From IMG/VR virus record IMGVR_UViG_3300026211_000001: DNA of 23,766 nucleotides, one strand, 5' to 3'. The stretch comes from a virus. A program made the position numbers and the translations under genes. Below the pieces are notes generated by a model. It had not been told where the DNA came from. It made no database searches and saw only the letters and a program-made list of their open reading frames with translations. This document shows, piece by piece, positions 2,898 through 17,749 of the stretch; the stretch's first letter is position 1, and each line of letters starts with the position of its first letter.

Positions 2898-3820
2898 TTT
2901 ATTGCTCCTAATAGTTCTATAATCATAGCCATAGCATTAATCTCTTTATCCACAACTTGTGCATCTGATAATTCATACCTGGCAATTATTAAAATACATT
3001 CTGCTACATGACCCTTACCATATTCATCTACCTTATCATATAACAACCTAAATAAATCTGCAAAATCTTTAACTTGATTGTCTGCTAACAATTGTCTTGT
3101 ATTTCTAAAAGCGTTCTTCTTATCTTGTGTCTTTAATATTTCAAGTACTTTTAATTTATAATCCCTCTCTAACAAACTCTCTTTATCTATCTTAACAACT
3201 CCATCTACTACCTGTCGTTGAGCAGAATTAATTACTCTACGAATATCTGGATAACCTGAATCAATCACCAATTTCAAATCCTCAAGTTCATATCCTACAC
3301 TTTCTTCTCCCAGAATTTCTACCAATCTTTTCGCAACATCTGGTTTAGATGGTGGTGTTGTCTGAAACAACTGACACCTACTCTGAATGGGATCAATAAT
3401 TCTCTCAACAAAATTACAAGTTAAAATGAACCTACAGTGTCTACTAAATGTTTCCATTAAGTTCCTTAGTGCAGCTTGTGCATTAGGAGTTATATAATCA
3501 CACTCATCAAGAATTACAATCTTCAATTCTTTAAACCCAAGTGTTGACGCAAACATCTTTACTTTATTTCTGATTGTATCTACATTATTTTCATCACTCG
3601 CATTAATATAAATAGAATCACATTCAATATGATTAACAAGTATTTTAGCAATAGTGGTTTTGCCTGTACCTGGTTTTCCATAAAACAAAAGATGTGGTAA
3701 GTCACCATTCTTAAGATACAAAGACACCTTACTCTTAAGATGCTCGTTCCCAATATAAGTATCTAAAGTGGAAGGTCGATACTTTTCAACCCACAAATAA
3801 TGGGATAATTTATCAGTCAT
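2894..3820 (-). CDS. gp44: Clamp loader large AAA+ subunit, T4 gp44/RFC-like
   Basis: LWVEKYRP, Walker A GKPGTGKTT, INASD, Walker B ILDECD, SRC motif. Start moved from 3853 to ATG 3820, which has AGAGGA upstream and overlaps the stop of the upstream gene. Confidence 0.95.
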   Translation of the reverse strand: MTDKLSHYLWVEKYRPSTLDTYIGNEHLKSKVSLYLKNGDLPHLLFYGKPGTGKTTIAKILVNHIECDSIYINASDENNVDTIRNKVKMFASTLGFKELKIVILDECDYITPNAQAALRNLMETFSRHCRFILTCNFVERIIDPIQSRCQLFQTTPPSKPDVAKRLVEILGEESVGYELEDLKLVIDSGYPDIRRVINSAQRQVVDGVVKIDKESLLERDYKLKVLEILKTQDKKNAFRNTRQLLADNQVKDFADLFRLLYDKVDEYGKGHVAECILIIARYELSDAQVVDKEINAMAMIIELLGAIK

Positions 3821-5024
3821 TCCTCTTTCTCCAAATCCACGTTGGTTCTCCAAATAACCCCGCTCTATCAGGCAATATATATTCGGGTTTTCTATTGGCT
3901 ACTTCTGTTACTTTTGCAGTCCCAACTCCAATACAATTGGGTCTTTTTGCCATCTCATAACCTATACAATCGTCATATTGACTGTCAGGAAATGTATCTA
4001 AAAAATCATTCATTGGATCACAAATAGACAACCATCCTTTTTTTCTACCTTTACTGGCTGCATTTACATCACTGATATTGACTAATAAATATCCACCTGG
4101 CTTCAAAGTTTTCCAAATATTTTTTAATGCTTTATGTAAAAACAATTCATTCCAACTTTCTATATCTTTATACCTAACCCAACTCTGAGTTTTATCATAA
4201 CTGTATCTCTCAACATTAAAATATGGTGGACTTGTGAATACTAAATCAAAGAAACTTTCATATTTACTCAAATCTACATCCTCTGCTGGTTCACACATAA
4301 AATCTGACTTTTTAGGTTCTTCAAAAAATCCTAAATGTTTATTGTAAAACTCGGCCTGTTCTTCGTATATAGGATGGTTCTCTTCTCTCGGGTCAATACC
4401 AAGATAATACTTCCCAGTATTAGATGCGTAAAATCCAGCCAACCTATCTCCCCAACCCATACTAAAATCAAGAATATTTCTTGCTTCATAAAAATCATAA
4501 ATTGCCTTGGCAACATTTGGTTTGAATTGAGAACAGATATACTTACGAAGTGCAATACAAGACCTTAAAGTTCCTCTACTTACTTTTTCTACTTCCAATG
4601 TAAAAAGTGATCCTAACAATGTGTACATAAACTTCGGATTGTTCCAAGTTCTAAGAGGTCCTGGTGAAATTGTACCATCAACAGACCATCTATTTTCTTG
4701 TTGAAAATAATTACTCGCACTATTTCCAGTGTTGATTCGCCTAACTATCTTATTACCAAGAGGCCATTTATAATCAGACCTAGCAAACCACTCACTTTCA
4801 ATTGTAACATCATACCAATGAGTTGCTTTCAATTTCATGAAATCATTGTAAGCCTGTTTTTTAGATATTACTTGATACGGTGGTTCATAGTCAGCCAAAA
4901 TTTCTACAAGTGAATCTTGTATGTCGTGTCTCTCGAAATTCTTTTTTATATAATTCCACTCTTCTTCATCAATATAAATGTAAGGCTCCATATTTCTAAA
5001 TTTATCGAAATATGTTAAATACAT
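3813..5024 (-). CDS. DNA amino-methyltransferase (N4-C/N6-A type)
   Basis: SQFKPNVAKAIY, DFSMGWGDRLAG (motif I variant), FTSPPYF (motif IV); motif I precedes motif IV. TAATG overlap with the clamp gene. Confidence 0.85.
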   Translation of the reverse strand: MYLTYFDKFRNMEPYIYIDEEEWNYIKKNFERHDIQDSLVEILADYEPPYQVISKKQAYNDFMKLKATHWYDVTIESEWFARSDYKWPLGNKIVRRINTGNSASNYFQQENRWSVDGTISPGPLRTWNNPKFMYTLLGSLFTLEVEKVSRGTLRSCIALRKYICSQFKPNVAKAIYDFYEARNILDFSMGWGDRLAGFYASNTGKYYLGIDPREENHPIYEEQAEFYNKHLGFFEEPKKSDFMCEPAEDVDLSKYESFFDLVFTSPPYFNVERYSYDKTQSWVRYKDIESWNELFLHKALKNIWKTLKPGGYLLVNISDVNAASKGRKKGWLSICDPMNDFLDTFPDSQYDDCIGYEMAKRPNCIGVGTAKVTEVANRKPEYILPDRAGLFGEPTWIWRKRND

Positions 5025-8334: not shown

Positions 8335-8384
8335 AAAAAATGAAACACAGGGGAAATATTTCTACTTCCCCTGTTACATTTCAT
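8335..8384 (-). terminator. Intrinsic terminator downstream of the TonB receptor
   Basis: Perfect 9-bp stem ACAGGGGAA (8347-8355) / TTCCCCTGT (8366-8374), followed on the minus strand by GTTTCATTTTTT. Confidence 0.8.
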
Positions 8385-8397
8385 TTCTTTTTGCTTG

Positions 8398-11190
8398 TTA
8401 GAAATTTACAGTAATACCTGCATTAAAGTATCTTGGTATTCCAAGAAATACTTCTGCGTTATGAGCTGCGTGAGTTTTATCTCCGTAACTATTGTATTGA
8501 CTGTGATCTACTGCATCCTGCACATATACAGCATCTAATGCGTTAAACATATGAGCAAATGCCTGTAGATTCAACCCACCGATTTTTGGCAAATCGTATG
8601 TAGCATGTAAGTCCATCCTAGAAAATCCAGGTGCCTGCCATACTTGTTCTCTATCAGCGTCTGCGTCTGAACCATCATACTCTCTTGCATTAGGACTCCA
8701 ATCTGCATAATTGTCATCATACACATTGAACGAAGATTGCAATCTAAGTCCTTTTATTGGTGTTACTGTAACACCTACAACATAAGCTGTCTGAGGCATA
8801 TCACCTACAAACAAACCATCAAGTGCGTAAGAATATGGAGTGGTTGTCTGTCCAACAACCTGACCTTGTTCATTATACTCATCTTCCTGATAATTACCAT
8901 CTGCATCACCAACAAAAGTCCAGTTTCCAAGACTTACTGCGGCATCCAAACGAACCATATTGGTAACATTAGTAGATGCCTCTACTTCAACACCTTTATG
9001 ATTCTGGTTTATACCAGATAAGAAGATAACATCAGTATCACCTGAACTACCTTGTCCACTCGTTACAGCTTTGGTAAGGTTTCTATCTTTCCAATCTGTA
9101 TTGTATGCACTGACTTTAACTGCCAGATTTCTAGCACTGTAATTCACTCCAGCTTCTGAACTGACAAACTGTTCATTTGCCGGGTCTGAAGCAACTGTTC
9201 CATCAAAGTAAATCACGTTATCCATAATAGGTGGTTTTTCCACAATACCGAAGTTACCGAAAACACTAACGTTATCTGCAACATCATACATTGCTCCACC
9301 TTTGAACTGAGTAGTAATAATAGGATCACCGTGATCTATAACTTCATCTGCAACAGTGAAATGGTCTTGGTAAGTATAAGCAATGCTCGATACTCCACCC
9401 ATACCATATGCTGAAAGTGGACCTGAGGAATATGATCCTTGTAAGAATCCACCTAACCAATCAACTGTAGTTTCATTGTGATAAGCAATAATATCACCTA
9501 ACTCAACATTTTTACCATCAGGTGCATTATCATCAGCAAAATCCACATAGAAATCACCACCAAGTAAATCACGAACTTCACGTGCATGTTCTATACCTGC
9601 AGTACGCCAATCTATACCCGCCTGTAATTTAAGTGCATCACTTAAATCTAAGTTGAGTTTAGAAATAACACCAATCGTATTTTGACGATTAATACTGTTC
9701 CTCAAAATACCTACTGATTGACCAGATTCTCTACTAATAGCTCTCTTATCAACATATACTACTGAATCTGTGCCAGAGTTCATAGCAACAAGAGCATTCC
9801 AATCACGAGTCCAGGGACCACGACCATAATAGAACTTATAATCATCATCACCTAAGTTACCATCAGCATCTAAGGTAGGAATCCTACCATAAGTACCAGT
9901 TCCACCTCCTGAACCACCACTCCAATAAAAGACTGAACTCAGTCTTGTTTTGTCATTGATAGTTAAGAAATGGTTAAGGTTAACCAATGGTTTGTGAAAG
10001 AAGTTCTCTCTTTCATTTAGATAGTTAGGATCGTGTCTAGCAACTGTATTGGCTCCATACATATACCAATATTGTTTACCCTCATAAGACGGGTCAATTG
10101 GTGACCAGTTCTGGTTAAATGTTCGTCCAACATCTTTGAACTGACCATCTTCACCAAGAGCTGTAGCGTCATATCCTTCTACACTTTCAGCAAACTCGGC
10201 ATCGTATGCGCCAAGATTCTGTTTGTATAGATTCTGACCATGACGTTGTGGTGCACCGACTGCATATAATTCGAATCGGTTCTTTTCATTCAGTGCGTAA
10301 CTTGCACCAAAGTAATATGCCCAAGCATCTGTCCACGTCTTGTCTATGACACCATCACCTGTCTTTCTAACACCAGTAAAACTGAAAGCGAACTTGTCCG
10401 CTACCAACCCAGTGTTGTAATTGAAAGTTGATTTCAGGAATCCACCTGCTCCAACTTCCTGTTTGTATTTACCACCCTTTTCAAGAGCAGCAGGATCTGT
10501 TATGATGTTCATAGTTCCACCAATAGAAGGTGCAGCTAAATTAACAGCACTTAATCCACGTTGCATCTGGATGGATTGTGCAACATCTGCTACACCATCC
10601 CAGTTAGACCAATAGACCCAACCATTTTCCATATCATTCTGTGGAACTCCGTTAATCATTACCGCAATATTCCGTTGGTTAAACCCACGAACATTGATAC
10701 GTGCATCTCCTGCTCCACCACCCTGTTGAGTTGCATATACACTCGGAGTAAGATTAAGAGACATTGGTAAGTCTTGTGAACCAAGACGAAATTCAATCTC
10801 TTCCTTTCCTACCGTAGTATAAGCAACAGGTGTTTTTTCATCTGCCCTCGAAGCCAAAACCTCAAGTGCAGACATCTCTAATGCAGATACTGAAAGGGAG
10901 AAGTCTACGGCACTTACCGCTTTCCCCTCCGCTACATCAACCTCTACTGAAAGAGATGCATATCCAATTGAAGAAGCTGTAAGTGTATAAGAACCTGCAT
11001 CTACCTTGATAGAATAAGCACCATCTGCGTCTGCAGCGGCACCCAAATCAGTTCCTTCTACTACAACATTAGCTCCAACTAGGGGTTTACTCGTTTCTGC
11101 ATCGGTAACTGTTCCCGCAACTGATTGTCCCCAAAGAACAATCGGCATAAAAAACACCGCCAATGTAGAAATTAAGTTACGATTCTTCAT
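8398..11190 (-). CDS. TonB-dependent outer-membrane receptor with N-terminal carboxypeptidase-regulatory-like domain
   Basis: Signal peptide (MKNRNL...IVLWG/Q), GTVTDAETSKPLVGANV domain, plug motif VRGFNQRNIAVMINGVP, barrel C-terminus PRYFNAGITVNF ending in Phe. Start moved from 11226 to ATG 11190, which has AAGGAG at 11197-11202. Confidence 0.93.
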   Translation of the reverse strand: MKNRNLISTLAVFFMPIVLWGQSVAGTVTDAETSKPLVGANVVVEGTDLGAAADADGAYSIKVDAGSYTLTASSIGYASLSVEVDVAEGKAVSAVDFSLSVSALEMSALEVLASRADEKTPVAYTTVGKEEIEFRLGSQDLPMSLNLTPSVYATQQGGGAGDARINVRGFNQRNIAVMINGVPQNDMENGWVYWSNWDGVADVAQSIQMQRGLSAVNLAAPSIGGTMNIITDPAALEKGGKYKQEVGAGGFLKSTFNYNTGLVADKFAFSFTGVRKTGDGVIDKTWTDAWAYYFGASYALNEKNRFELYAVGAPQRHGQNLYKQNLGAYDAEFAESVEGYDATALGEDGQFKDVGRTFNQNWSPIDPSYEGKQYWYMYGANTVARHDPNYLNERENFFHKPLVNLNHFLTINDKTRLSSVFYWSGGSGGGTGTYGRIPTLDADGNLGDDDYKFYYGRGPWTRDWNALVAMNSGTDSVVYVDKRAISRESGQSVGILRNSINRQNTIGVISKLNLDLSDALKLQAGIDWRTAGIEHAREVRDLLGGDFYVDFADDNAPDGKNVELGDIIAYHNETTVDWLGGFLQGSYSSGPLSAYGMGGVSSIAYTYQDHFTVADEVIDHGDPIITTQFKGGAMYDVADNVSVFGNFGIVEKPPIMDNVIYFDGTVASDPANEQFVSSEAGVNYSARNLAVKVSAYNTDWKDRNLTKAVTSGQGSSGDTDVIFLSGINQNHKGVEVEASTNVTNMVRLDAAVSLGNWTFVGDADGNYQEDEYNEQGQVVGQTTTPYSYALDGLFVGDMPQTAYVVGVTVTPIKGLRLQSSFNVYDDNYADWSPNAREYDGSDADADREQVWQAPGFSRMDLHATYDLPKIGGLNLQAFAHMFNALDAVYVQDAVDHSQYNSYGDKTHAAHNAEVFLGIPRYFNAGITVNF

Positions 11191-11218
11191 AATCGTCTCC
11201 TTCATTGTTTTATTGAAA

Positions 11219-11254
11219 TGACGCATTTTTCAACAGGTGCGTCAACTGCCTGTT
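11219..11254 (-). promoter_or_regulatory. Predicted H-type RNA pseudoknot in the nrdJ / TonB receptor spacer
   Basis: Minus strand AACAGG-CAGU-UGACGCA-CCUGUU-GAAAAA-UGCGUCA: 6-bp S1 and 7-bp S2, both perfectly Watson-Crick and interleaved. Confidence 0.55.
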
Positions 11255-11269
11255 TTTCCCACGATATTT

Positions 11270-13237
11270 CTAAATTTCACATACATCATTATTACAAAAT
11301 TTTTCAACCACTGCCTCACTTCCCTTAATCTGTCTAAAAGATAAATATTTAAGTTTTGACATCATCGTGTCATATTTTTTCTTGTCCACTTCTTCATATG
11401 GCATTTGTGCATAAGCCCCTCCATTCCTTCTCGGTAATAGAGAAATCCCCTTTAATTGATACTGATAAATATCCAAAACATGAGACAAGTCTCTTTTCTC
11501 TGTTTCTGGATCAAAAGTAACAGTACAACTAACTTGATTGTCTGCCCAATACTTTTGCATAAAAGCTGCCAAACTAAATTGTTCCCATACTGATAATTCC
11601 TTAGAAGTTCTTATTCCTTTACCAACATCGACTGGAACTTCCACCACTACCGTAGTATCCTCTGAACCAAATGCTGGTTCTATCTTATATCCAGAGGCCT
11701 CAAGTGGTTTAAGTAAAGGACTGTATTTTGATAATCTTATTCGTCTAATATATAATCTACTTTCTGGATAATGTAGTCCTGGAGTAGCACCTGCTAATAG
11801 TGAAACAGTACCACTTGGTTTTACGGAAGTAGTCTTAATAGAACGGGGGGTTGCGAACCACTCACTATAAACCTTGTCCCAATCTTGAATTACATTATAT
11901 CCATCCATTAACCACGTTTTCAGTTCATCTATTCCTTTGTAAGTTATAAATTGTGCAATACCACTAACACTACAACCAATTCTACGATTTCTTAACATAA
12001 CACGATTAGTTTCTGGCCAATGAGTCTTTCCGAGTGTTACTGTCTTAGCATACAAATAGGCATATTTAAGTGTTCTTTTAAACTCTTCCAAATTTTCATG
12101 ACGAAACGGAAATGTTTCTACAAGACAACATAACTCATATGACTCTAATGTCTGTTCTAAACACGGATTGCCACCTGCTGCTCGTGTATCATAACCATTT
12201 GGTTCATCACACATTCTACCATAACTTCTCATATTTTCTAACCATGCAAACCCAGGTTCACCGTTGTCTGTAATTCTTTTACAAGACTCTGTATAATCCA
12301 TTCCAAGTTCTGCAAATACTGAATTATTAGAAGTCCAACCATATTGTTCTCTATGTGGATTCTTTTTATAGTTTTTGAGATTTAGATACTCTTCATCACT
12401 TGGATCACCAAATACAATCTCTGCTGTTCTACGAACATTGCCCGCAACTACACATTTACCTACAAGATTCATAATATCAACAATAACCGTAGAACTAATT
12501 GGAGATCCAACGTTTTCATCAAGAACCTTTCTTATACCTGTGTGTGACTCTTCTAATGGTTTGTGGCCACTTGAAAGACCACCAAAACCTTTAATTGGTT
12601 CTCCCTCTTTTCTTATTTTATTATAATTAAACTTTATAGGTGATGTTCCATGAAAATAACTCTCTAACAATAACCTTAAAGATTCTATCCAACCCTCCCG
12701 AGTGTCTGGAATTACATATAATTCTGAATTTCTATTTTTATTGGGGCCTTTAATTAGGATTTGATTTGCACCTTTTGTATCAAACCCAACTCCTACCCCC
12801 AACATTGATGCGTCCATCAAAAAACAAAATGGTTTTGCATAATCGTCTTTAATAGTAGATGTGGATACAAATGCACAATTGTTCAGTGCTGCATAAAGAC
12901 CTTTTTCTTCTGTAAGTGGAGTTCCCATTGCCCAAAGACCTCGGCCGGGTGGTAAAAACTTCATATTGAATATCTTATCATACATTTCTTGAGCTGACCG
13001 CTGTGCTTGCCAAGGATTCCAACCAAGTTGATGAGAATCAATCCAATTCATTTGCATTGAGTAAGTGCCCTCTACAACCCTTTGAACAGTTTCCCACCAT
13101 TGCTCGTTTTTTCCATCTTCCTTGATGCGAGAATAAGTTCTCATATAAACTAATTCTCCGAGTCCGTTAAATCCAAATGGGGGTCTTTTTCGCTTGTATT
13201 TATCTATGAAATTATCTGATAACTTGAATTTTTCCAT
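11270..13237 (-). CDS. nrdJ: Adenosylcobalamin-dependent (class II) ribonucleotide reductase, monomeric RTPR type
   Basis: FLPPGRGLW, NCAF, GNVRR, active-site NPCLEQ, VKPSGTVS, C-terminal Cys pair FCNNDVCEI; no class I small subunit in the window. Confidence 0.93.
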   Translation of the reverse strand: MEKFKLSDNFIDKYKRKRPPFGFNGLGELVYMRTYSRIKEDGKNEQWWETVQRVVEGTYSMQMNWIDSHQLGWNPWQAQRSAQEMYDKIFNMKFLPPGRGLWAMGTPLTEEKGLYAALNNCAFVSTSTIKDDYAKPFCFLMDASMLGVGVGFDTKGANQILIKGPNKNRNSELYVIPDTREGWIESLRLLLESYFHGTSPIKFNYNKIRKEGEPIKGFGGLSSGHKPLEESHTGIRKVLDENVGSPISSTVIVDIMNLVGKCVVAGNVRRTAEIVFGDPSDEEYLNLKNYKKNPHREQYGWTSNNSVFAELGMDYTESCKRITDNGEPGFAWLENMRSYGRMCDEPNGYDTRAAGGNPCLEQTLESYELCCLVETFPFRHENLEEFKRTLKYAYLYAKTVTLGKTHWPETNRVMLRNRRIGCSVSGIAQFITYKGIDELKTWLMDGYNVIQDWDKVYSEWFATPRSIKTTSVKPSGTVSLLAGATPGLHYPESRLYIRRIRLSKYSPLLKPLEASGYKIEPAFGSEDTTVVVEVPVDVGKGIRTSKELSVWEQFSLAAFMQKYWADNQVSCTVTFDPETEKRDLSHVLDIYQYQLKGISLLPRRNGGAYAQMPYEEVDKKKYDTMMSKLKYLSFRQIKGSEAVVEKFCNNDVCEI

Positions 13238-16990: not shown

Positions 16991-17749
16991 CTACTTATTA
17001 AATAATTCATCAAATGCTTCAGATGCATTTGTTACAGTTGTTGTCTGTTCCAAAGTGGCTTCTGTAGCTGAATCACTTTCTTTTGTAGTTGTCTCGTCAT
17101 CAGAGGGACTTAACCAATTTTGTAAAACTTCTGCAAGTTCATCATAAGACTGTTCCTGATAGATTTCTGTGATGTTCTTTTGATTTTCAAGAATACTTTC
17201 AAATACTGCCTTATTTTCAGTTACAGGAGTTTGATTTGGTTTTACACGAATATTTGTTTTTGGAAATGAAGATCCAACTTCTTCAGCTGTCTTGAACTCT
17301 ACTACTACATCACGACCATTTACGGGATCACTAATATCACCATAATCAGGGTCTGCTATAATACTTAAAAGTTCTTGATAAACTGTCTTACCAAAACCCC
17401 AGAATTTAACACCCTCTCCTTCTTCGCTTTTTACTACAACGGGAGCAAAAGTTCTCATCTTGGCTTCTAACTTTTTACCAAGTCTCCAATCTTCCCTATT
17501 TCCGGAAGATTTTAGTTTATCTGCGAACTCTTCAATCGGGTCTGGACGACCAAAACTGATAGGTGACAAATAACTCTTTCCGCCCAAGTCATAATGAAAA
17601 AATAACTCAATGAACGGAATTGATTTATTGTACTTATAAGGTACTATCCTTATTTGAGTTTTACCAGGCTGTGGTTTCCAAAGATTTGTTGTTCTGGTGT
17701 TTGTTGTTTGAAGTTGTTCTAATTTCTTACGAATTGCATCAATATCCAT
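16991..17749 (-). CDS. gp32: Single-stranded DNA-binding protein, T4 gp32-like
   Basis: LWKP...IRIVP, GVKFWGFGK.VY, DISDP..GRD, acidic tail ending FDELFNK; AGGAG upstream. Confidence 0.88.
   Translation of the reverse strand: MDIDAIRKKLEQLQTTNTRTTNLWKPQPGKTQIRIVPYKYNKSIPFIELFFHYDLGGKSYLSPISFGRPDPIEEFADKLKSSGNREDWRLGKKLEAKMRTFAPVVVKSEEGEGVKFWGFGKTVYQELLSIIADPDYGDISDPVNGRDVVVEFKTAEEVGSSFPKTNIRVKPNQTPVTENKAVFESILENQKNITEIYQEQSYDELAEVLQNWLSPSDDETTTKESDSATEATLEQTTTVTNASEAFDELFNK

Follow-up and report, generated by a model that had tools for sequence, protein, structure and literature searches.

Directly behind the ribonucleotide reductase gene nrdJ, the viral record IMGVR_UViG_3300026211_000001 carries a gene for a TonB-dependent transporter (TBDT) of 930 amino acids (aa), located at positions 8398-11190 on the minus strand. 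All coordinates refer to the window, that is, the whole stretch of 23,766 nucleotides (nt) that was analysed. The protein is a real, intact, phage-borne TBDT, and on balance we think that its gene is a host-derived uptake gene, serving as an auxiliary gene in a large clade of marine T4-like phages whose probable hosts are Marinimicrobia. The original prediction, made from the sequence without database searches, had taken nrdJ and the receptor gene as a cofactor-supply module that imports vitamin B12, or another vitamin or metal, for phage synthesis of deoxynucleotides. Of this proposal, the role in uptake is still the best reading of the receptor, whereas the coupling to nrdJ and to B12 did not stand up to an inspection of riboswitches, BtuB models and genomic context.

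The earliest ATG of the open reading frame (ORF) would extend the gene to 8398-11226 (minus strand), and this ATG falls within a conserved RNA stem. Conservation points to the ATG at 11190 as the start, with the strong Shine-Dalgarno sequence AAGGAG (11197-11202, minus strand; read from the sequence) 6 nt before it, and relatives show GAGGAG or AAGGAG at the same position. With this start, on which the N-termini of 61 relatives agree, the protein has 930 aa and the spacer to nrdJ has 79 nt, so that the description of an intact receptor gene 79 nt downstream of nrdJ and on the same strand is borne out. The assignment as a TBDT is based on Pfam matches, a structure model and the fold searches made with it, and invariant alignment columns. 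Pfam finds CarbopepD_reg_2 with 69.7 bits and the Plug domain (PF07715) with 50 bits, against a cut-off of 23.9. The layout consists of a signal peptide (residues ~1-21), a glutamine at position 22, CarboxypepD_reg (~24-107), a candidate TonB box (~108-116), the plug (~118-226) and a beta-barrel (~239-930) that ends in a phenylalanine. Read by eye, the N-terminus MKNRNLISTLAVFFMPIVLWG, followed by Q, looks like a Sec signal peptide and a subsequent glutamine. Among 62 relatives, F930 is nearly invariant, as is typical of the C-terminal aromatic residue used for insertion by the beta-barrel assembly machinery (BAM). In the same alignment the candidate TonB box, ALEVLASRA, lies at the expected position, with E110, A113 and S114 invariant and V111 and L112 conserved in at least 90% of the sequences.

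An AlphaFold2 model calculated with the 62 relatives reaches a predicted local distance difference test score (pLDDT) of 72 overall, with most of the barrel between 70 and 90 and the plug at 30-40. A Foldseek search with this model retrieves the TBDT barrel (E 6e-25), with Fiu, FhuA and PqqU ranking first, and VIA-align aligns residues ~107-930 to more than 50 TBDT entries with Z between 23 and 27. Nominally, BtuB of E. coli comes first in VIA-align (Z 27.0, root-mean-square deviation 2.9 A over 489 residues); however, under the rule that the tool itself applies, the BtuB values of 26-27 count as tied with the 25.7-25.9 of Fiu, FoxA and FhuA, all this at 12-13% identity. Neither of the two fold searches discriminated between substrates. 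When we searched the PDB sequences with a profile of 62 sequences, we found matches to the N-terminal domain and the plug only, and none to the barrel. The matches in GenBank phages, at no more than 30% identity, are fragments from gut entries named "Bacteriophage sp." and pieces of plug domains from huge phages. The original prediction was right in stating that the sequence does not reveal the substrate.

Next, we asked where the gene comes from and how far it has spread. In IMG/VR, 316 stretches encode a relative of the receptor, and the best 80 of these 316 are at least 64% identical to it. The ESM Atlas contributed a cluster of 58 members, 100% of them viral, and otherwise added only viral and Fidelibacterota clusters. 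For cellular relatives we searched one genome per species (GTDB) and kept the best 80 loci. Of these, 79 are on cellular contigs, with 52-77% identity, and one is a mis-binned phage contig; nearly all cellular loci are labelled Marinimicrobia, Neomarinimicrobiota or Fidelibacterota. The cellular orthologue is mostly single-copy in Marinimicrobia and was detected in 25 of the 61 genomes sampled across the phylum. It resides in a housekeeping neighbourhood, with an SRAP peptidase gene upstream and dnaG, cvpA and yqeY nearby, and among the ten most conserved neighbour clusters of 90 cellular loci there are no SusD or Btu partners. In an unrooted tree of 147 full-length copies, 66 cellular copies are split from 81 copies of the phage clade with a support of 100. 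This topology fits a single capture from a Marinimicrobia transporter lineage, which would have been followed by diversification in phages, and Marinimicrobia (SAR406) are therefore the probable hosts of the phage clade.

There are a few deviating loci. One receptor, on a 4.3 kb contig from a Marinimicrobia metagenome-assembled genome (L129), is placed by the tree on a long branch within the phage clade although its context is cellular: a DegT aminotransferase gene precedes it, another receptor follows it in tandem, and it lacks the pseudoknot described below. It may be either a tree artefact or a return transfer from phage to cell. In several metagenome-assembled genomes labelled Woeseiaceae, Lentisphaeria, Winogradskyella or Flavobacteriales, the receptors group with Marinimicrobia or with the phage clade. 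These contigs (L094, L103, L108, L113 and L118) are probably mis-binned: L108 is almost identical to the Marinimicrobia contig L109, and L118 is a phage contig.

The receptor gene has a higher GC content than the remaining phage genes (0.40 versus 0.30), which could be taken for a sign of recent acquisition. We rejected this explanation, because the GC content at third codon positions (GC3) of the receptor gene, 0.25, equals that of the other phage genes (0.18-0.28); the raised overall value stems from codon positions 1 and 2. The median GC3 is 0.35 for cellular copies and 0.23 for phage copies. By these values, the gene is old in phages and has been recoded to phage codon usage. The ratio of nonsynonymous to synonymous substitution rates (dN/dS) is 0.11-0.28 in phage pairs as compared with 0.05-0.28 in cellular pairs, and no stop codon interrupts any of the 80 phage-clade copies that reach 850 aa or more. 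We were not able to find a single column that is fixed differently in phage and cellular copies. In the plug region, 76% of the positions are common to both groups at a level of at least 90%, and the phage-specific insertions and deletions comprise only 1-2 residues, with no larger loop deletions. The phage copies are thus kept intact under purifying selection in the same way as the cellular ones.

The position next to nrdJ is a different matter. Seeded with the receptor, 65 of the 75 evaluable loci have nrdJ as the immediate upstream neighbour, in some cases interrupted by an insertion. Seeded with nrdJ, the scan returned the receptor in 5 loci only, and 47 evaluable relatives are without it. 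In 27 of these 47, polB follows nrdJ at a distance of 59-4533 nt, and the junction is either empty or filled with unrelated cargo. Some of the receptor-less phages are equally close to the window phage in helicase, PolB and sliding clamp (71, 65 and 68% identity for L185/L186), and nrdJ itself is 73-78% identical to that of the window in relatives both with and without the receptor. The cargo, surveyed in the nrdJ-seeded loci L168-L243, includes a secreted trypsin-like protease with dockerin, glutamine-synthetase-like, AsnA-like and pyridoxal phosphate (PLP) enzymes (for example L189:9006-13431, L180:9835-11172 and L172:10873-11883), and an ORF similar to NUMOD3 endonucleases. The trypsin cargo (15 loci) and the receptor (84 loci) never occur in one locus, while the glutamine-synthetase-like gene is found with either. 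Since receptor-less relatives have the junction empty or occupied by other cargo, we conclude that the nrdJ-polB junction is a cargo slot, and that the receptor adjoins nrdJ for this reason. The conserved linkage of nrdJ and receptor therefore holds when seen from the receptor, but not when seen from nrdJ, given the 47 nrdJ-bearing relatives without a receptor.

Ten evaluable IMG/VR loci show the receptor, without nrdJ, in a different phage context. Across contexts, DNA homology is limited to the receptor cassette, setting in ~60-100 nt ahead of the ATG and ceasing ~5-100 nt past the stop codon, with an identity of up to 95.5% over 2966 nt (L020 versus L023); nrdJ is therefore not part of the inherited or exchanged unit. 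Potentially, the 12 IMG/VR loci that we termed "TBDR-only" (TonB-dependent receptor only) could have been host contigs. We rejected this possibility, because they fall inside the phage clade and have the phage leader and phage-like neighbours. Their neighbours are genes for Hsp20, a halogenase-like protein and a DruA-like protein, and nrdJ was not found in five "TBDR-only" records, each of which is only 12-38% complete. In one such alternative context (L004:21677-22789, plus strand) a DruA-like (Druantia) protein and a tryptophan-halogenase-like gene are encoded near the cassette. As a side observation, the nrdJ match of the loci L013, L014, L044 and L054 is partial and lies ~1-3.8 kb from the receptor, which suggests that an intein, an intron or a homing endonuclease may have been inserted into nrdJ.

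The spacer between nrdJ and the receptor gene is occupied by an H-type pseudoknot (11219-11254, minus strand), which the original prediction had missed. Its first stem pairs 11249-11254 with 11232-11237 and its second stem 11238-11244 with 11219-11225. Loop L1 is CAGU (a near-invariant CAG(U) in relatives) and loop L3 is the A-rich GAAAAA; an A/U-rich stretch follows up to the Shine-Dalgarno sequence. We see this pseudoknot in all 77 phage-clade receptor loci that have enough upstream sequence, whatever the genomic context. The 55 distinct sequences show compensatory changes at four pairs in each stem (CG/UA, AU/UA, AU/GC and GC/AU) and no unpaired cells at the core pairs. The covariation score was reached by none of 500 shuffles, and slid controls collapse. 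A search of the spacer against Rfam gave noise only and no family matching the pseudoknot. With a covariance model we find the pseudoknot once per phage receptor locus, and we were not able to find it in front of other slot cargo or of cellular orthologues. As it precedes phage receptors only, it is a phage-specific control element of this one gene.

Two further elements delimit the cassette. At its end there is an intrinsic terminator (8335-8389, minus strand) with a GC-rich stem of 12 bp (8347-8374), a T-run and an extension of A-run and T-run; the extended hairpin has a folding energy of -28.2 kcal/mol (z -7.8). A scan of the spacer between nrdJ and the receptor gene gave no terminator-like site, in agreement with the earlier description of a strong terminator behind the receptor gene and none in front of it. 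At the other end, 68 of the 77 phage-clade loci have the motif ATTTCACATAC on the sense strand, 10-25 nt ahead of the pseudoknot, as a mark of the cassette's 5' edge. The window has only an inverted copy (11274-11284, plus strand; the sole exact match), inside the last codons of nrdJ; the motif is here what the codons for the C-terminal V-C-E-I of NrdJ read in reverse complement. Because each locus has the motif only once, we rejected the idea that it acts as a promoter for phage genes in general. The case for a host regulatory site is weak, with 8 of 67 cellular loci showing the motif with at most one mismatch against a background of 1.7%. A promoter, a recombination site and a long-range RNA pairing partner are, side by side, candidates for its function. 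Edge motif, leader pseudoknot, Shine-Dalgarno sequence, ORF and terminator together make up a self-contained cassette of ~2.95 kb that is exchanged between closely related phages.

What would the phage gain from such a gene? If the receptor is expressed during infection, it would be exported by the Sec and BAM systems of the host and energised by the host's TonB-ExbBD, in the course of the long infections of slow-growing oligotrophs. In the outer membrane it could keep up or raise the uptake of whatever the host orthologue transports, and thereby feed phage replication, while the pseudoknot probably sets translation or stability of the receptor mRNA. In five related phage records, which are 19-63% complete, we found no member of the TonB_C and ExbB families. 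The other slot cargo (glutamine-synthetase-like, AsnA-like and PLP enzymes and the secreted protease) hints weakly at a supply of organic nitrogen. The TonB-dependent receptors of Marinimicrobia are among the most transcribed and expressed transporters of the upper ocean (PMC13096325, PMC5776962).

Several points weigh against an auxiliary uptake gene of Marinimicrobia phages. The plug is so poorly modelled that nothing can be concluded about a binding site. A protein that reaches the outer membrane late in a lytic cycle pays only if latent periods are long, which we assume. The assignment of the hosts is based on the phylogeny of the receptor gene itself. Finally, TBDTs frequently serve as phage receptors, so that a role related to adsorption fits the same data.

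This last point leads to the most serious of the alternatives, which we nevertheless regard as unlikely. The host orthologue may be the adsorption receptor of these phages or of their competitors, and the phage copy would replace or dilute it, either to block superinfection or to avoid the loss of progeny on cells that are already infected; transport would then be a by-product. TBDTs are classic phage receptors, as exemplified by FhuA with pb5 of phage T5 and with Llp, and these complexes (8b14 and 8a60) are indeed among the fold matches of our model. The orthologue is a conserved and probably abundant surface protein, and the exchange of the cassette among related phages would suit this explanation as well. 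However, we see neither fixed differences between phage and host copies nor phage-specific changes in the loops, and conservation in the long loops is no lower among the phage copies (0.78) than among the cellular copies (0.69). A faithful copy of the receptor would add adsorption sites instead of removing them, and the invariant block of plug and TonB box is what one would expect of a working importer. Because the loops of the phage copies do not differ systematically from those of the host, we do not favour this explanation over the uptake of a host substrate.

A more far-reaching interpretation, to which we likewise give only a small chance, is that these phages remodel the outer membrane of a globally abundant, uncultured phylum with a TonB-dependent gate of their own, controlled by a new class of small RNA. 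The 33 nt leader pseudoknot would then be either a riboswitch that senses the substrate of the transporter or a translational operator of the gp32 type, and in both cases it would tie the synthesis of the importer to the state of the infection. The receptor might here also be a traded surface molecule: if related phages compete over it, this would explain why the cassette is passed around.

We consider it very improbable that the receptor imports cobalamin or another corrinoid for the adjacent NrdJ and that the two genes form a functional unit. At first sight, there is something to be said for it: nrdJ is the upstream neighbour in the 65 of 75 loci given above with no terminator in between, E. 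coli BtuB is the nominal (if tied) top structure match, and some homologues bear the automatic JGI name "outer membrane cobalamin receptor". A preprint on viruses with ribonucleoside-triphosphate reductase (RTPR) speculates that they may enhance B12 uptake; it raises viral uptake as a possibility and does not mention receptors (10.1101/2023.03.13.532061). On the other hand, no cobalamin riboswitch (RF00174) was found in the window (E up to 1), in the spacer (E up to 10) or upstream of 11 cellular orthologues. As a positive control, we searched five Marinimicrobia genomes that carry the orthologue, and three of them contained exactly one RF00174 match (39-86 bits). In each of the three, the gene that immediately follows the riboswitch encodes a different receptor (682-688 aa), which matches the TonB-B12 model TIGR01779 over its full length (E 5e-20 to 2e-12) and has its best PDB sequence matches in BtuB3 and BtuB of Bacteroides (B. 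thetaiotaomicron) and in E. coli BtuB. A BLASTP comparison of this receptor with the phage protein gave no significant match (E 0.17), and neither the phage protein nor the orthologue of L109 matches TIGR01779 or NF007926 (E up to 0.01). Since the riboswitch-linked, BtuB-like receptor is separate from the orthologue, the host has a BtuB candidate of its own, and the phage took another gene. Together with the nrdJ relatives that do without the receptor, the cassettes that move without nrdJ and the unrelated cargo in the slot, this means that the B12 reading is largely refuted as far as genomic context goes. An observation on the side concerns one of the Marinimicrobia genomes, in which the gene behind that of the riboswitch-linked receptor (L166:1955-3253, minus strand) encodes a DUF5074 protein carrying a Por secretion tail, which may be a surface B12-binding partner.

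Weakest of all is the idea that the cassette is a selfish or neutral passenger that spreads through the cargo slot without benefit to the phage: it is a discrete unit that moves between contexts and is missing from many close relatives, but the 80 stop-free copies, their dN/dS, the fully ameliorated codon usage, a leader RNA maintained by compensatory changes and the lack of a transposase or homing endonuclease within the cassette make it hardly credible.

All genes of the window are on the minus strand and, according to Pfam, PHROG and a comparison with GenBank phages, form a T4-like replication module. In gene order, it comprises a gp32-like single-stranded DNA-binding protein (SSB; 16991-17749, minus strand), a RecA/UvsX-like protein, a 5'-3' exonuclease, a DnaB-like replicative helicase (PF03796; 13323-14681, minus strand), nrdJ and the receptor, followed by a family B DNA polymerase similar to gp43 (PolB; PF00136 and PF03104; 5801-8314, minus strand), the sliding clamp, a methyltransferase, the clamp loader and a ClpP-like protease. 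The helicase gene lies upstream of nrdJ and polB forms the downstream border of the cargo slot, so that the placement of the gene pair between helicase and polymerase had been described correctly; the order helicase, nrdJ, slot, polB is kept across relatives. The closest PolB of a GenBank phage is that of Microcystis phage Mel-JY01, with 44.7% identity. The nrdJ product (655 aa; 11270-13237, minus strand) is a monomeric class II, that is, adenosylcobalamin-dependent, RTPR with matches to TIGR02505, PF17975, PF21995 and phrog_367; its score for the TIGR02505 equivalog, 344.3 bits, is above the cut-off of 340.05. The module contains two DNA methyltransferase-like genes (2-1072 and 3813-5024, both minus strand). 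The positions of both vary between relatives, and in many loci one of them is found between exonuclease and helicase. In the gap of 660 nt from the gp32-like SSB gene to the next ORF, there is a match to the manA RNA motif that covers its full length but stays below the threshold (RF01745; 17937-18130, minus strand; 39.8 bits against a gathering threshold of 55.2, E 3e-7).

Among the auxiliary genes known from phages of the sea are those for photosynthesis, for the binding of phosphate and for central metabolism. The searchable literature describes no complete TonB-energised importer of the outer membrane that is conserved in hundreds of viral contigs, and in the papers that we searched on phage-encoded TonB-dependent receptors, SAR406 phages and the cryoconite phage pan-genome, we did not find this receptor gene. 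In the ocean interior, SAR406 belong to the uncultured groups of heterotrophs with the highest abundance. If our preferred reading as an uptake gene is true, their viruses would alter what infected cells take from seawater, and with this the fluxes of dissolved organic matter and nutrients. In practical terms, the receptor gene is a host marker for a large clade of T4-like phages, the nrdJ-polB slot is a site where host-specific genes accumulate, and the leader pseudoknot is a new RNA motif with covariation support. Whether phages with an RTPR have a B12 gate of their own is an open question in the preprint mentioned above (10.1101/2023.03.13.532061), and such a gate is not what this gene pair shows.

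How does the receptor compare with known systems? Its nearest counterpart is the uncharacterised chromosomal orthologue of Marinimicrobia (SAR406/Fidelibacterota; ~920-980 aa), with 52-77% identity over the full length, the same order of CarboxypepD_reg, plug and barrel, the same invariant block of plug and TonB box and the same C-terminal phenylalanine. It differs from the phage gene in its housekeeping neighbourhood, the lack of a pseudoknot leader and a host-like GC3. We know of neither a cultured marine member of this phylum nor a cultured phage infecting it. The BtuB proteins (1NQE from E. coli; BtuB1-3 from B. thetaiotaomicron, 8BLW/8P97/8BMX) share the TBDT fold. However, the phage protein is ~340 residues longer than E. 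coli BtuB and has the N-terminal CarboxypepD_reg domain; its identity to BtuB is 12-13%, and it has neither a match to TIGR01779 or NF007926 nor a riboswitch. With SusC/RagA of Bacteroidota it has in common an N-terminal CarboxypepD_reg domain, the plug, a large barrel and the glutamine after the signal peptide, which are features of the FCB group. In contrast to SusC/RagA, the phage protein scores 59 bits with TIGR04056, where the cut-off is 368, and only over residues 35-198, and a SusD-like gene was not found among the conserved neighbours in the phage loci or in the 90 cellular loci.

For the leader, the mRNA of T4 gene 32 offers a comparison, which we take as a lead only. There, the leader pseudoknot is a translational operator bound by gp32. 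As in the window, it is an H-type pseudoknot ~30-65 nt before the start followed by an unstructured A/U-rich stretch, and the window phage is itself T4-like and encodes the gp32-like SSB described above. On the other hand, the pseudoknot of the window precedes a transporter gene and not the SSB gene, and the likeness is one of architecture; a small riboswitch or a stabilising element would fit equally well.

Finally, marine T4-like cyanophages carry host-derived auxiliary genes such as pstS, which codes for a phosphate-binding protein, and psbA. Like these, the receptor gene is host-derived, intact, under purifying selection and adapted to phage codon usage, and it would presumably sustain a limiting function of the host. 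Unlike them, it is predicted to supply a gated, TonB-energised channel of the outer membrane, has an RNA leader of its own and moves as a cassette.

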